Part shown: one piece after another, positions 3,975 to 55,869 of the stretch
Numbering within the stretch: position 1 is the stretch's first letter
How the letters are laid out: every line of letters starts with the position of its first letter
Assembly: GCA_964016885.1 (NCBI GenBank)
Contig: OZ024742.1
Location: forward strand, 239,196,001-239,260,000
DNA length: 64,000 nt
From: Eledone cirrhosa
Taxonomy: Eukaryota
Direction of reading: 5' to 3'
Made by a program: the position numbers and the translations under genes
Notes under the pieces: model-generated
Told to the model about the DNA's origin: nothing
The model's input: only the letters and a program-made list of their open reading frames with translations
Databases searched by the model: none

Positions 3975-4026
3975 TTTACTCTTTTACCTGTTCCACCCAT
4001 CTGGCTGAGGCCATGCTGGGGCACCA
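3975..4026 (-). mobile_element. Short CR1-type/SINE 3' tail
   Basis: Matches the 3' end of the CR1-like element at 50292-50342. Confidence 0.6.
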
Positions 4027-4095
4027 TATTATATAATATATATATATGTATATATTATATTTATATATGTATATATGTGTATATATATATATATA

Positions 4096-4335
4096 CATCG
4101 TTCCTTTGTCAGTGTTGAACAAAAGGGCAACGATGGTTCCCGAACACTGTACGGCTTAATTCGGTCTGTTTGTTTACAAACAAACCGAACATTATAATAA
4201 ATGTTCGGTAAACCCATACGTACATATATATATGTGTCCATGTATGTATATACATACTACTGTACGTCTGTATACATATATGTATGTACGTATACATACT
4301 TATATTTAAGTATCAGCAGTACTAAGAGTGAGATG
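4096..4335 (+). mobile_element. Permuted fragment of the hammerhead unit at 39340-39670
   Basis: catcgttcctttgtcagtgttgaacaaaa matches the reverse complement of 39361-39390. 4252-4333 matches the reverse complement of about 39580-39660. Confidence 0.75.
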
Positions 4336-4900
4336 TATGTATATATTATATATGTATGTATATATGTATCATATATATGTATGTATTATATATATATGTA
4401 TGTATTATATATATATGTATGTATTATATATATATGTATGTATTATATATATATATGTATGTATTATATATATATGTATGTATTATATATATATATATGT
4501 ATGTATTATATATATATGTATATATTATATATATATGTATTATATATATATGTATATATTTTATATATATGTATATATTATATATATATGTATGTATTAT
4601 ATATATATGTATGTATTATATATATATGTATATATTATATATATATGTATTATATATATATGTATTATATATATATGTATATATTATATATGTATTATAT
4701 ATATATGTATATATGTATATATTATATATATATGTATATATTATATATATATGTATGTATTATATATATATGTATATATTATATATATATGTATGTATTA
4801 TATATATATGTATGTATTATATATATATGTATATATTATATATATATGTATGTATTATATATATTATACATATTAAATATTATATATTTATATATATAAT
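4335..4900. repeat. (TA)n/TATG compound microsatellite
   Basis: Low-complexity tract; the ORFs here are artefacts. Confidence 0.95.
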
Positions 4901-7516: not shown

Positions 7517-8016
7517 AATGTAAATCTGAGCTTTCCGAATATTAATAATAATACTCAATTCATTTGCAATTATGCAAACAGCCTCTTTAAGCCATGTAAG
7601 TAGAATGATATCATCATTCTTTTCTTGTGTTGGCATATAAACAGAATGGCAGACACTAATGTTTCTGGGTGATTACCCTTCATCAGTACCGTATACTGCT
7701 TACAACTGTCAGAGCTAGTGAAAATATATATTTTCTGAAATATACAGTGACTAATCGGCCTGATTTGCATATTAGCAGACTGGCTGATCAGTCAGATCTG
7801 CATATTAGCAGACCCACTGATCAGCCAGATCTGCATATTAGCAGACCCACTGATCAGCCAGATTTGCATATCAGCAGACTGGCCAGTCAGTTTCATGTAT
7901 ACAAGCAATTAATGGCTGGCGTTGCCATAGTTAAATATCTAACAAATAATTTTATCGCTCTACATGGCTGAATATAAGAAATGTAAATCTGAGCTTTTCG
8001 AATATTAATAATAATA
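7515..8016 (-). mobile_element. Hammerhead-containing non-coding unit with terminal direct repeat (retrozyme/Penelope pLTR-like)
   Basis: aatgtaaatctgagcttt.cgaatattaataataata at about 7516 and about 7980; internal 33-bp tandem repeat at 7757-7890; hammerhead at 7648-7690. Confidence 0.65.
7648..7690 (-). ncRNA. Minimal type-I hammerhead ribozyme
   Basis: ggta CTGATGA a gggt-aatc-accc a GAAA cattagtg TC tgcc; helix I ggta/tgcc. Confidence 0.7.
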
Positions 8017-18314: not shown

Positions 18315-18377
18315 ATTTTATTATATATATTTCAAGGGCAACCAAGACAACATTGGTACGCTTTCATCAGATAAAAT
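18315..18377 (-). ncRNA. Hammerhead ribozyme
   Basis: attttat CTGATGA aagcgtaccaa..ttggttgccctt GAAA tatata TA ataaaat; 7-bp helix I; flanks homologous to 35740-35870. Confidence 0.75.
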
Positions 18378-30240: not shown

Positions 30241-30495
30241 ATATTACATATATATATATATATATTACATATACAATTAAGTTAAAAATGTACATCCACA
30301 TATGTATACTGAAATACTAGTATGCATATGAATACACACACGTATACATATGTAGATGTACCGAGTTTTTCACTGGTCACTTTACTGTGAGTGTCCAGCT
30401 ATTCTGTATGTAAACACACAGACAAACCGGTTTTTAGAGTCATACTGGTTTTTGAGGAAACACCTTTCCTCTATTCTCCAGAAAGCCAGACAAGG

Positions 30496-30540
30496 AATAT
30501 TGAACTAGTTTCGATGTTGTTACATCTCATCAGCAATATT
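30496..30540 (-). ncRNA. Hammerhead ribozyme
   Basis: aatattg CTGATGA gatg-taacaa-catc GAAA ctag TT caatatt. Confidence 0.9.
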
Positions 30541-30918
30541 TACCTATCTTCCGGCCTCTCTAGAGAATCGTAAAAGCACATATCGTTATATGCTTTTTCT
30601 ATGAAAATTAGTAGTGGGCAGACTAATTTGCATAGAGCGTGAGTACGTACCGGTTCAACGGAGACGATAAAAACAAATAACGAAACGAAATTAAATTTCG
30701 TTTCGTTTGTAACTCACTTTTGTATAACTGACGCTTAAACAATTAAGTTAAAAATGTACATCCACATATGTATACTGAAATACTAGTATGCATATGAATA
30801 CACACACGTATACATATGTAGATGTATGCAAATTAGTCTGCCCACTACTAATTTTCATAGAAAAAGCATATAACGATATGTGCTTTTACGATTCTCTAGA
30901 GAGGCCGGAAGATAGGTA

Positions 30919-30963
30919 AATATTGCTGATGAGATGTAACAACATCGAAACTAGTTCAATATT
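30919..30963 (+). ncRNA. Hammerhead ribozyme
   Basis: Identical motif; 7-bp helix I, 4-bp helix II, palindromic ACTAGT helix III. Confidence 0.9.
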
Positions 30964-31260
30964 CCTTGTCTGGCTTTCTGGAGAATAGAAGAAAGGTGTT
31001 TCCTCAAAAACCAGTATGACTCTAAAAACCGGTTTGTCTGTGTGTTTACATACAGAATAGCTGGACACTCACAGTAAAGTGACCAGTGAAAAACTCGGTA
31101 CATCTACATATGTATACGTGTGTGTATTCATATGCATACTAGTATTTCAGTATACATATGTGGATGTACATTTTTAACTTAATTGTTTAAGCGTCAGTCA
31201 TACAAAAGTGAGTTACAAACGAAACGAAATTTAATTTCGTTTCGTTATTTGTTTTTATAT

Positions 31261-31299
<39 letters not shown>

Positions 31300-31440
31300 C
31301 ATATATATATATATATATTACATATATATATATATATATATATATTACATATATATTACATAACGAAGGAAATGTGGTAAGGAACCAGGTGGACCATAAC
31401 GCACCAAAGTACTCAATACTTAGGGTAGTAGAGTGGGTAA

Positions 31441-31556
31441 TAGGAATGAATAGGACCCCGACGGCTGAGCTCAAGCCGTTTCGACGGCTAATTCTGGGTC
31501 CAGAATTAGCCGTCGAAACGGCTTGAGCTCAGCCGTCGGGGTCCTACTCGTTCCTA
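31441..31556. repeat. GC-rich near-perfect hairpin carrying the 3' half of a hammerhead
   Basis: About 57-bp arms centred at 31498; gtc GAAA cggct-tgagctc-agccg TC gggg. Confidence 0.9.
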
Positions 31557-31657
31557 TATATTACATATATATATATATATATGATAATAAGGGCGCTGCG
31601 GAGTTGCATATATATATATATATATATATATATGATAATAAGGGCGCTGCGGAGTTG

Positions 31658-35768: not shown

Positions 35769-35832
35769 ATTTTGTCTGATGAAGGCATAGCATATTGTTA
35801 ATATGATATCCCCGAAATATATATAATGAAAT
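35769..35832 (+). ncRNA. Hammerhead ribozyme
   Basis: attttgt CTGATGA aggcatagcatatt-gtt-aatatgatatcccc GAAA tatata TA atgaaat, then AATAAA. Confidence 0.7.
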
Positions 35833-39297: not shown

Positions 39298-39339
<42 letters not shown>

Positions 39340-39342
<3 letters not shown>

Positions 39343-39662
39343 TAAGGCAACCACGTCACCTTTTTGTTCAACACTGACACAGGAACGATGTACTAGTTTC
39401 AAGCTTGTTAGCTATCATCAGCACCGTTTACCCATCTGCCAGATAGTTGAACGTTCGAAAGTATATACTTTCCTTATGAAAATTAACGGCTGAGCAGCCT
39501 AATTTGCATATTGAGTGAGTTAAATCGGTCAGGCATACCGAAAACGATAAGTTGAAAAAAATGAAAACGAAATTTCATTTCTCACTCTTAGTATGGCACT
39601 TACTTAAATGTAAGTATGTATGTATACGTACATACATATATGTATACAGACGTACAGTAGCA

Positions 39663-39670
<8 letters not shown>
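39340..39670 (-). mobile_element. Hammerhead unit related to the 30.3-kb family
   Basis: Shares tatgaaaatta..cag.ctaatttgcata and tttacc.atct.cc blocks with 30540-30700. Confidence 0.7.
39384..39428 (-). ncRNA. Hammerhead ribozyme
   Basis: aacggtg CTGATGA tagc-taacaa-gctt GAAA ctag TA catcgtt. Confidence 0.8.
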
Positions 39671-39731
<61 letters not shown>

Positions 39732-40331
39732 GCATACAGGTACACATACATATATGCACGCATCAGTTTAGCCGACGTTATATATATATATATAACGACG
39801 TTATATATATATATAAACACTTTAATACATGTATACACTTACATCTAACTATACTCATCAAACATATATATATATTTACTTATTTATATACATTTTCACA
39901 TATATATACATACATATGGTCACTTTTAGACACATTCATTATAGCATATTCGCACCTATTCTCATCAGCATATCTTTCCATTATTAGTGTGGTAATTTAA
40001 GGTTATTAATATACATATATATGTTGAGAAGAGATTGTTTTTATATTTTTCTAACTAGATTGAGGTTTATATAGTTGGGGGGATGTCCCTCTTTTATGTA
40101 ATATAGCGCGCCATACTGTGTGTAATATTTATATTACAACACTACGGAAAATACTGTATATATATATTATATATATATTATATATCATCATCATCATCAT
40201 CAACGTTTAACGTCCGTGTTCCATGCTTGCATATATATATATATATATTATATATATTATATATATATATGTATTATATATATATATGTATTATATATAT
40301 ATTATATATATATATATATATATATTATATT

Positions 40332-40373: not shown

Positions 40374-40780
40374 TTTATATCTATGAAAACTTAGGAAAGA
40401 CAACATGGAAAGAAATGCTAAAGCTAAAAGTGTGCATTTGCAAATATAGACTATAGGGCAAGAGAGCGGTAATATGTCAAACCCTTTTAGCTTTAGCATA
40501 TCTTTCCTAAGTTTTCATAGATATAAATTCCCTGTTCTTCTGAGTTTTGGCTTGTTCTGGCTGTTAATACTTCTTGTCTCTTTACTTGCTCTGATGAGTC
40601 CCTATTAATGGGACGAAACACTGTCAGCTAATAAAGACTTTTGATGTATTGAAGGCTTCTTTGTTTATTCTTTATAATTTTACGGGTCTGTTGAATTACA
40701 TTGAGCTATACCTTTACTGTCATTTCTCTAATACGACGAGTGTGTTTAACTCAAACGCACTCAAGTATTTTAATCTTATA
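40373..40780 (+). mobile_element. Hammerhead unit with a 5' partial inversion
   Basis: atttatatctatgaaaacttaggaaaga and atgctaaagctaaaag recur inverted at 40484-40528. Confidence 0.7.
40588..40628 (+). ncRNA. Hammerhead ribozyme
   Basis: gct CTGATGA gtccc-tattaat-gggac GAAA cactg TC agc t AATAAA. Confidence 0.9.
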
Positions 40781-44164: not shown

Positions 44165-44209
44165 AGTCACTGAAGAGGTCACAGAGTGTGTGACGAAAGA
44201 ACTATGACT
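44165..44209 (+). ncRNA. Hammerhead ribozyme
   Basis: agtca CTGAAGA g gtcaca-gagtg-tgtgac GAAA gaac TA tgact. Confidence 0.85.
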
Positions 44210-44381
44210 ATATATATATAAACAACTATCTGGTTGTGGAACCAACCAACCAACCAGAAATTTATAAATTTGTAAATTTATAAATATATAATAAATTAAA
44301 TTGAAGTGAAAGCAACTGGTGCGTGTGTTTCTTATTGGCAACATGACCCTCCCAAAGTATAACAATATTATATATATATGT

Positions 44382-53020: not shown

Positions 53021-53138
53021 TGATAGATAGATATAGATATATATTTTATATATGTATTATATATATATATTTTATATATGAATTATATATATATATTTTA
53101 TATATTTATTATATATATATATATATATATACATTTCA

Positions 53139-55869
53139 AATAAATTTCAAAGCAAATTACTTGACGCTTTCGACAGTAAGGAAGAGCAATTAGAGTCGTA
53201 TAATATAGAGGAACAGTGGGAATTCCTGAGAGCAAACCTGCTGACGGCGGCAGACGAAGTCTGTGGCTGGAGCAGGCCTGTAGGTAGGAGGAGAGTAACA
53301 TGGTGGTGGAACAGTAAGGTGGAGGAGTCAATTAAGGCCAAAAAGCAGGCTTGGAAAGTATGGCGGGATGGGGGAAGTAGAGAAGACTATCAAGTGGCCA
53401 GGAGGGAAGCTAGGAGACAAGTGTACTTCGCAAGAAGGGAAGCAGAGGAAAGAAAGTTCAAGCATGTTCTACAACGTGAGGACCAAAAACGTGAGGTGTT
53501 CAGGATTGCCAGGCAATGTGTCAAGGAAAACCGTGATATTGTCGGGGAGAAGTGTGTACTTAACGATGATGGCATACTTGCCATCACCGACGCTGATAAG
53601 AAGGTAGCTTGGAAGTGTCACTACGAAAGGCTTCTAAATGAGGAGAACAAATGGGAGAAAGACAGTCTCCCCCAGATCGATCCAATAGAGGGACCAGCAG
53701 TGTTAGTTGAAGGTAGTATAATAAGTAAGGCAATCAAAGATATGAAGACGGGTAAGGCGGCTGGGCCTTCGGAAATAGTTGCTGAGATGCTGAAGGCATC
53801 TGGTTCGGTGGGACACACCATGGTCACCCGGATAGTTAACCAAGTCGTACAGAATGGGGTTGTTCCGAAGGAATGGCGTAGCAGCATCATCGTTAACTGC
53901 TATAAGGGAAAAGGAGATGCCCTAGATAGGAGTAACTATAGAGGCATTAAATTAATCGACCAGGTCATGAAGGTCACGGAAAAAGTAATAGCGCAACTAA
54001 TCAGAGAGAGAATTGATCTAGATGAAACGCAGTTCGGGTTTGTGTCAGGCAAAAGTACCACAGACGCTCTTTTCATTGTACGACAACTACAGGAGAAGTA
54101 CCTAGCTAAAAGTAAACCCCTATACTTAGCTTTTATCGACTTGGAGAAAGCCTTCGACAGAGTCCCCCGTTCCATTATCTGGTGGTCTCTTAGAAAACTA
54201 GGTGTTGACGAATGGCTTGTGAGAGCTATACAAGCCATGTATAAAGAAACAGTCAGTAAGGTTAGAATTAACAACGAATATAGTGAAGAGTTTAGCGTAA
54301 AAGTTGGTGTCCATCAGGGCTCTGTACTTAGCCCCCTACTATTTATTATTGCCCTTCAGGCTATAACAGAGGAGTTCAAGACCGGCTGCCCATGGGAACT
54401 CCTATACGCAGATGATCTAACGCTCATAGCTGAATCAATGACCGAACTAGAGAAGAAATTCCAAACGTGGAAGCACGGCCTAGAATCAAAAGGCCTTAAA
54501 ATTAACCTGGCTAAGACTAAAGTTCTAGTTTGTAGGAAAGAAAATAAGGCGGCGGTCCCATCGGGGAAATGGCCATGCTCAGTGTGTAGGAAAGGCGTAG
54601 GTAGAAACTCCATTTTATGTCCCAAATGCAAAGTATGGGTGCATAAAAGATGTAGTGGGATCACAGGTAAGCTAACTAAGAACATAGATTTTACATGTGG
54701 CCGGTGCTCTGGTGCAATAAGTAGCAGCAAGTGCCCACAAAATACTAGCTCCTTCAACTGCGCAGAGGGTTCTATAGAAATAGTGGACAGCTTCCGTTAT
54801 CTGGGTGACAAAATCAGCAGTGGGGGAGGGTGCTCTGAAAGTACAGTAGCTAGAGTCAGAACTGGATGGAAAAAGTTCAGAGAGCTTATACCACTACTAG
54901 CCGCTAGAGGGTTCTCCCTAAAAATGAAAGGCAGGTTATACGATGCCTGCATACGAACAGCAATGCTGCATGGCAGTGAGACCTGGGCATTGTGTGCAGA
55001 GGATATACGCAGACTAGAGAGGAACGAAGCTTGCATGCTCCGCTGGATGTGCAATAGTAATATACGTGAACGGCAAAGCATAAACGAACTAAGGAAAAAA
55101 TTAGAAATAAGAGGGATCAGATGTTGTTTACTCGAGAGAAGGCTACGTTGGTACGGTCACGTGATGCGCATGAAAGACGACAGCTGTATAACAAAGTGCA
55201 GGGCAATAAAGATAGACGGTAGCCACGGAGTAGGCAGACCCAGAAAAACATGGGACGAGCTGATAAATTCCGACCTCACACGCTTACACCTCTCCAAGAC
55301 AATGTCACTGGACCGAGACCTTTGGCGGTACTCAGTAATAGAGAAGACCCGCCTTACCTAAATACAAAGTAAAAACCTACTACAGTCAGTAGGCACCTCT
55401 ATCAAAACACACCCCCGTCCCACCACCTCCACCCCACCCACACCGCCCCTTTCAATGTAAAGTTATGTTGGTCCCACAACATCCAGGCCGAAACAAATGA
55501 GATCGTGTAGGTGTCACGACAAAAAACATACAGTCCACGCTGTAAATGTGGCCGTGTAGGCAACACGGTAAAAACCTCCCAGCCCCACACTGTAAATGTG
55601 GTTGGTGTTAGGAAGGGCATCCAGCTGTAGAAAACCCGCCAGACAGTCCACGCTGTAATGTGGCCGTGTAGGCAACACGGTAAAAACCTCCCAGCCCCAC
55701 ACTGTAAATGTGGTTGGTGTTAGGAAGGGCATCCAACTGTAGAAAACCCGCCAGACAGTCCTATGCGAGCAAGACAACCACTCTTGCCTCAAGTGGGAAA
55801 ACCCCCGTCCAAACCCATGCAAGCGTGGAACACGGACGCTAAACCTGATGATGATGATGATGATGATGA
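53139..55869 (+). mobile_element. RTE family A, 5'-truncated young copy with an uninterrupted RT ORF
   Basis: The frame is open from the truncation point to 55361; 3' UTR with a duplication; (GAT)n tail. Confidence 0.97.
53319..55361 (+). CDS. RTE reverse transcriptase (partial ORF, endonuclease missing) with a PHD-like finger
   Basis: [50 protein letters not shown]. Confidence 0.9.
   Translation: MEESIKAKKQAWKVWRDGGSREDYQVARREARRQVYFARREAEERKFKHVLQREDQKREVFRIARQCVKENRDIVGEKCVLNDDGILAITDADKKVAWKCHYERLLNEENKWEKDSLPQIDPIEGPAVLVEGSIISKAIKDMKTGKAAGPSEIVAEMLKASGSVGHTMVTRIVNQVVQNGVVPKEWRSSIIVNCYKGKGDALDRSNYRGIKLIDQVMKVTEKVIAQLIRERIDLDETQFGFVSGKSTTDALFIVRQLQEKYLAKSKPLYLAFIDLEKAFDRVPRSIIWWSLRKLGVDEWLVRAIQAMYKETVSKVRINNEYSEEFSVKVGVHQGSVLSPLLFIIALQAITEEFKTGCPWELLYADDLTLIAESMTELEKKFQTWKHGLESKGLKINLAKTKVLVCRKENKAAVPSGKWPCSVCRKGVGRNSILCPKCKVWVHKRCSGITGKLTKNIDFTCGRCSGAISSSKCPQNTSSFNCAEGSIEIVDSFRYLGDKISSGGGCSESTVARVRTGWKKFRELIPLLAARGFSLKMKGRLYDACIRTAMLHGSETWALCAEDIRRLERNEACMLRWMCNSNIRERQSINELRKKLEIRGIRCCLLERRLRWYGHVMRMKDDSCITKCRAIKIDGSHGVGRPRKTWDELINSDLTRLHLSKTMSLDRDLWRYSVIEKTRLT

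Follow-up and report, generated by a model that had tools for sequence, protein, structure and literature searches.

A predicted hammerhead tandem repeat of Eledone cirrhosa and the likely origin of its copies by Penelope-type reverse transcription

Metazoan non-LTR retrozymes, as described by Cervera and de la Pena (2020, PMC7229834), are non-coding, low-GC tandem repeats (units of 150-450 bp are quoted) in which each unit carries one type I hammerhead with a short, palindromic helix III and the monomer is strongly self-paired. Expression, cleavage and RNA circles have been demonstrated for these elements, and a circle model of their transposition has been proposed, without demonstration, in the same paper. 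The GIY-YIG elements of the Penelope type (PLEs; Neptune/Poseidon) are marked by 5'-truncated copies, by partial tandems and by head-to-head inversion; one arm may bear a tail, there are two 3' start sites, the targets are AT-rich or microsatellite DNA, and the repeat contains a hammerhead (PMC11167929, PMC8557442, PMC3846280, PMC4209133). In vitro, an anole PLE cuts and extends both strands and starts reverse transcription (RT) at two internal sites, with no need for hammerhead cleavage (PMC11167929). PLE insertions carry the tail on one inverted arm, are arranged head-to-head and are biased to microsatellites (PMC3846280, PMC8557442). Finally, vertebrate retrozymes derived from PLE pLTRs have been proposed to be non-autonomous PLE derivatives that occur as monomers, dimers and multimers, on the basis of co-occurrence and pLTR homology (10.64898/2026.07.22.740005).

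The repeat family described here was met in a 64,000-nucleotide stretch of Eledone cirrhosa DNA (the window) and shares the structural traits listed above for the metazoan retrozymes and the GIY-YIG PLEs, apparently including the lack of coding sequence; like the vertebrate retrozymes, it is proposed to be a non-autonomous PLE derivative found as monomers, dimers and multimers. The RNA properties demonstrated for the metazoan retrozymes are, in this family, predicted from sequence. It differs from them, the published families being compared by their descriptions, in its internal TA tract, its (TA)n target and its insertions, which are mostly dispersed, 1-3 units long and often head-to-head. 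It differs from the GIY-YIG PLEs in apparently having no ORF and in a tail of about 54 nt, versus the 30-40 bp published, and from the vertebrate retrozymes in that its connection to PLEs is drawn from junction anatomy, with no pLTR homology found among 40 GIY-YIG loci. Our main reading, to which we assign a probability of about 0.75, is that the fragment beginning at window position 4096 is a truncated copy of an abundant, apparently non-coding, tandem repeat with a predicted hammerhead, likely inserted through target-primed reverse transcription by a GIY-YIG PLE, and that its 5' end likely came to lie at the predicted cut site through random truncation and a shared TA. No such family was found in the literature on octopus and cephalopod hammerheads, retrozymes and Penelope elements, and the words "ribozyme" and "retrozyme" are absent from the main text of PMC13282606; the comparison covered such papers, and the family may already have been described.

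The tandem repeat and its copies in the window

In its own genome, the family has 32,700 exact matches to one 16-mer and 1,834 to a 30-mer. A DNA search of the same genome returned 767 candidates; the 40 that were scored have 90-95% identity over the query, and the flanks of scored look-alikes hold head-to-tail units with the hammerhead immediately before CATCG. The repeat is a head-to-tail tandem of 420-480-nt units, each with one predicted type I hammerhead. This is the pattern of non-LTR retrozymes, whose units of 150-450+ nt likewise stand head-to-tail and contain one such ribozyme apiece. Array periods across loci run from 414 to 538 nt, and array lengths from 2 to at least 11 units. No terminal repeats were seen. 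Self-pairing of the monomer is strong (z -6.3, a figure inflated by the monomer's TA hairpin). We take the family to be a non-LTR retrozyme behaving as a non-autonomous PLE.

The fragment at 4096..4333 (plus strand) is a single, 5'-truncated piece of 238 bases that covers monomer positions 1-242 of a 428-nt subfamily. It has 93.4% identity to our reference monomer, a natural 428-nt unit excised from locus L030 between successive cut sites. The copy begins where the hammerhead is predicted to cut, reading TA^CATCGTTCC from window position 4096 (the caret marks the cut), and has neither a ribozyme core nor an inverted arm. Its 3' end, at position 242, falls between the usual family 3' ends at 217 and 271. 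The 5' flank is a (TA)n microsatellite (4026..4095), the likely target, and the 3' flank is a TA-rich array with a 19-nt period (4336..4898), whose spread may have removed the 3' end that the copy first had. A second fragment lies at 39339..39773 on the minus strand (about positions 108-428 plus 1-52) and crosses a unit junction. It belongs to a related, longer (466-480-nt) subfamily, placed here on the coordinates of the 428-nt L030 monomer, and its extension beyond 39706 was made by eye.

In a self-comparison of the window, 4094-4141 aligns to 39392-39346 (87.5%) and 4221-4333 to 39696-39580 (83.8%), the latter being sequence that precedes the ribozyme in the 39.4-kb copy, which lies on the minus strand. 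These alignments bear out the original prediction that the copy starts at the cut site and then continues into ribozyme-upstream sequence. Its caveat, that the TA before the junction overlaps the flanking microsatellite, holds as well: the same TA is found in the (TA)n flank and in the two bases preceding the cut site. The permutation of one copy relative to the other is trivial and calls for no special event, because two pieces taken anywhere from a tandem repeat will seem permuted. Nor is the copy at 4096 a monomer, since it ends at position 242 of 428. Open frames of at least 150 aa over this copy all extend through the TA array beside it, and there are none over the 39.4-kb copy.

The hammerhead is predicted at 39384..39428 (minus strand; core 39391-39421), with the cut between 39391 and 39390. 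It is of type I, with a 7-bp stem I, a CUGAUGA core, a 4-bp stem II and GAAA; the base of stem II is U.U, and the 2-bp stem III has the palindrome ACUAGU. Per-column counts over about 200 units recover the core CUGANGA ... GAAA ... UH, with each base at 93% or more. Stem I keeps at least 6 of its 7 pairs in 233 of 279 motif matches and stem II all 4 in 242, the 279 including overlapping loci. Stems I, II and III are found together with compensatory change. The third pair of stem I is G.U, A-U or U.G between subfamilies, a double-sided change, and in the relatives at 30.9 kb (see below) and at L133 stems I and II have changed, stem I with several double-sided changes, and stem III is still palindromic. 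The canonical G10.1-C11.1 pair that closes stem II is absent in the family of the 39.4-kb and 4096 copies, where U.U or C.A takes its place, and present in the 30.9-kb relative; a U.U variant at the base of helix II is described for the axolotl HHR_Amex2 (PMC7229834). Rfam returned no hammerhead at gathering score (the best was HH9, with 18.5 bits against 52 and E 1.5), and its miRNA matches were rejected as TA-hairpin noise. Conservation of the core, at 96.8%, does not exceed that of the remaining unit, at 95.5% (p = 0.23). Self-cleavage by this hammerhead is predicted only.

Several other repeats share the window. A related hammerhead repeat with a 466-nt period forms a head-to-head pair in (TA)n at 30270..31258 (cores 30502-30533, minus, and 30926-30957, plus), one arm being long-ended and the other short-ended, with the ends placed by eye; its family is about 66% like the 39.4-kb copy over part of the length. 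Elsewhere in the genome, L133 and L142 hold older, diverged relatives of the repeat, and the L133 hammerhead differs, with the palindrome ACAUGU and changed stems. Hammerhead-like cores of other families lie at 7652-7686 and 18319-18370 (minus) and at 35779-35830, 40591-40630 and 44170-44212 (plus). Helitron-like fragments (Helitron_like_N, DUF6570) occupy 140-2373 on the minus strand. At 53082-55361 (plus) is a LINE family with an RT and then a PHD-finger match, many related copies of which, 90-99% alike, are spread across much of the window. A small repeat with a long palindrome inside starts right after TA tracts at 31363-31560 and at L024, L029, L062 and L071.

3' ends, TA targets and paired arms

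The ends of copies were placed in a sample of the 30-mer matches, namely the 100 listed of the 1,834, in position order, from the first 118 Mb of contig C1, which make up 90 distinct segments. In 40 of these the 3' end is at 213-221, and in 27 at 264-273. There are thus two fixed 3' sites, at positions of about 217 and 271, 54 nt apart and joined to (TA)n. A TA run directly follows 60 of the 90 segments, and the element in antisense orientation forms the 5' flank of 44. About half of the copies have an inverted arm. The 5' ends of copies are scattered.

Head-to-head pairs were surveyed over loci L001-L149 and L190-L219. The survey found 80, both ends being at the fixed sites in 41; the other 39 were set aside as having at least one end elsewhere, in a TA tract, or at the locus edge. 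Among the 41 classifiable pairs, 38 combine a long-ended with a short-ended arm, two are short plus short and one is long plus long (p = 5.5e-9). Partner arms differ at 124 of 2,202 subfamily-diagnostic cells (5.6%), versus 42.7% for random arms, and therefore both arms share one source. Fold-back copying of one arm from the other was rejected, since the short-ended arm is the longer of the two in 17 of the 38 long-plus-short pairs (by eye) and arm lengths are uncorrelated (rho -0.11). At the inner junctions of the 80 pairs, the arms overlap by at least 1 nt in 46, meet bluntly in 10 and are separated by an insert in 24.

The insertions thus have the PLE-type combination of fixed 3' end(s), a tail on one arm, 5' truncation, head-to-head inversion and an AT-rich target. 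By analogy with those elements, a reverse transcriptase of the Penelope type likely placed the copies in TA repeats. On the ribozyme strand, family-wide counts are 296 for A>G and 205 for T>C (p = 6e-4), or 144 and 109 under a stricter filter (p = 0.1), with other pairs symmetric. The excess of A>G hints weakly that the RNA template undergoes A-to-I editing.

Young RT/GIY-YIG elements are present in the genome, with open frames of up to 1096 aa and about 97% identity between copies within a family. From 10,596 GIY-YIG candidates, 150 were scored and 40 loci were taken for comparison. The repeat gave no significant alignment, measured against shuffles, to 20 GIY-YIG 3' flanks. A blastn comparison with the 40 loci returned nothing beyond separate insertions, and no pLTR homology. 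PLE fragments were also met near retrozyme loci. Several young PLE families with long frames (938 and 1096 aa) are found at L170-L174 and L178-L184 and have a CxxxxCxxC linker before the GIY-YIG domain; these are tentatively classed as Neptune-like. A further PLE family (L150, L153, L157, L161, L187) carries, in the 3' flank of the GIY-YIG ORF, a short hairpin-like motif, AAGT...TTTCGTTT, about 110 nt before its 3' end. The TTTCGTTT motif resembles the tail hairpin of both retrozyme families and is a lead to the partner, noticed post hoc and with no significant alignment. Hammerhead-like cores also stand beside the PLE ORFs at L159, L160, L167, L179, L180, L182 and L183.

Possible circular and linear templates

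Young arrays are near-uniform inside, yet each has its own fixed variants, in keeping with rolling-circle copying of a monomeric circle. At L233, the 8 full units of both arms are all letter-identical. Relative to L233, L222 has 4 substitutions and L235 a single gap (466 vs 472 nt), each of these differences being present in all units compared; the 10 units of L235 have three sequences, all of 472 nt. Over the family, neighbouring units differ at 4.6% of diagnostic alleles versus 42.7% at random, and they share 14 rare variants where 0.7 would be expected, against 249 rare variants that are private to a unit. Common family variants account for 83 of the 675 non-CpG differences between neighbours, versus 3.9% by simulation. 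Whole subfamily switches occur between neighbouring units at L061 and L097, and with mixed-subfamily neighbours a single circle cannot be the template for such insertions. Ordered A-B unit patterns recurring between loci gave no clear signal (16 same-order vs 23 reverse-order pairs).

We propose the following route. Retrozyme arrays would be transcribed, and the PLE endonuclease would cut a (TA)n tract on both strands. From each cut end, cDNA synthesis would be primed at one or other of the two fixed sites in the RNA and would proceed a random distance along an uncut template, and the two cDNAs would then be joined at short microhomologies. The template would likely often be a ligated monomeric circle, copied by the rolling-circle mode, and in some cases a linear multimer of mixed units; we judge the odds that circles are a frequent template to be slightly better than even. 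A more specific version has a dimeric PLE enzyme reverse transcribing a ribozyme-made RNA circle by rolling circle, with the (TA)n cut ends priming on the same circle species, one per fixed site, to yield head-to-head arrays of identical units. This version is tentative, and we would bet slightly against it.

A different account has uncleaved, linear read-through transcripts as the templates and local amplification at the DNA level as the cause of array uniformity, with circles playing no part. We regard it as a serious possibility, with a chance of roughly one in three. Read-through of the cut site fits a circle and a linear multimer alike. Linear templates are further favoured by the insertions with mixed-subfamily neighbours and by the anole PLE, which uses uncleaved RNA in vitro (PMC11167929); Li, Clavereau and Pollet (bioRxiv 10.64898/2026.07.22.740005), who report cleavage in 1/9 Xenopus dimers, favour local amplification. 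The diagnostic alleles shared by neighbouring units argue against this account, as do the fixed variants that each young array has for its own and the identical opposite arms of L233, which are unlike the outcome of unequal crossover in one arm. The identity of units could also arise from young, uniform source arrays, from later unequal crossover or from assembly polishing.

The 5' end at the predicted cut site

When 5' junctions were set against the cleavage site in the sample and with a genome-wide filter, along the lines of the check that the original prediction had called for, no hot spot appeared in either. The 90 sample segments pass the cut site 101 times, and 0 ends lie within 2 nt of it, where 2.1 are expected from the sample mean truncation rate of 0.42% per nt; L071, in the same sample, was put at +1 by first-pass placement only. 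Truncation rates along the monomer range from 0 to 1.1% per nt (20-nt bins, sample). The genome-wide junction filter asked for a 22-nt exact block whose three upstream bases differ from the element, within a 3-nt window, and its pass rates were about equal over sites (0.41-0.53). It found 68 junctions in 18,844 units at the cut site, 85 in 19,172 at a control 8 nt downstream and 40 in 19,092 at a control 10 nt upstream; about 99% of units genome-wide therefore read through the predicted cut site.

Small internal indels were then removed by eye (9, 7 and 33 rows at the cut site, upstream and downstream), leaving 59, 33 and 52; a script run on 30 of the 68 cut-site matches classed 5 as internal deletions. 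The curated cut-site rate is 1.15x that of the downstream control (p = 0.5; uncurated 0.81x) and 1.8x that of the upstream control (p = 0.006; uncurated 1.7x), ratios that sit inside the several-fold rate variation along the monomer. Widened to positions -2 to +12, the filter gave 679 matches; of the 100 listed, 7 to 11 were assigned by eye to the cut-site class, no peak was seen, and 30 were checked by script. On these counts, the cut site was rejected as a hot spot of 5' ends. Among the top 29 look-alikes, a set that was ranked by full query cover and left out of the rate, two more copies (L007 and L012) begin at +1 and a third (L002) lies within 5 nt of it. The exact start of the copy at 4096 is real, yet within chance expectation at the family level, and is likely a coincidence.

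It is unlikely that this copy instead records a small-minority event in which RT ran to the extreme 5' end of a linear RNA released by self-cleavage. The exact start at +1 is what such a template would leave, and if the 1.7-1.8x excess over the upstream control were real in full (p about 0.006), self-cleaved templates could account for as much as about 45% of the starts at the cut site. However, the start rate at the cut site is estimated at ~0.22% per nt (59 / 0.48 / 3 / 18,844), whereas the sampled subfamily averages 0.42% per nt. Moreover, neither the raw nor the curated comparison exceeds the downstream control appreciably, and the TA is common to the flank, with 33 of the 68 junction matches ending in TA (by eye). 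Cleaved templates are a minority at most, and the 1.8-fold excess over the upstream control remains. The template named in the original prediction, a self-cleaved monomer from a tandem or circular RNA, is thus kept in part: a tandem hammerhead repeat with a likely circular or multimeric RNA template is supported, and the 5' end as the record of a self-cleaved linear monomer is not.

We think it less probable still that the ends of the copy are secondary, a longer insertion having been trimmed later by deletion or by microsatellite expansion. The TA arrays on both flanks are long and unstable, and a 3' end at 242 is unusual, both of which would suit such trimming, but the 5' flank holds no remnant of an upstream unit, and the cut-site starts in TA at L191, L198 and L216 have normal 3' ends. 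Mobilisation by a LINE, for example the window's RTE-type elements, or as a DNA element (MITE) is very improbable: endonuclease/RT LINE fragments are abundant in the window and many copies resemble inverted repeats, but the repeat itself ends in neither poly(A) nor a simple-repeat tail, its two 3' ends are fixed, internal and paired long with short, and its unrelated arm lengths and variable inner junctions are unlike terminal inverted repeats.

Our preferred reading therefore remains a randomly truncated copy, likely made by a PLE enzyme, and the single junction at 4096 has little weight in it; the interest is carried by the family-level asymmetry of the arms and by the uniform arrays. Self-cleaved 5' ends are rarely, if ever, where the cDNAs of this family stop. 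Because its units number more than 30,000 and some insertions are very young, the family offers a countable test of circles versus linear multimers in animal retrozymes, and it also allows a test of the origin of PLE head-to-head insertions with a one-sided tail. If the circle reading is true, these arrays would be direct genomic support for the circRNA step proposed in the transposition of animal retrozymes, and the PLE "tail on one arm" would be explained as an obligatory asymmetry.
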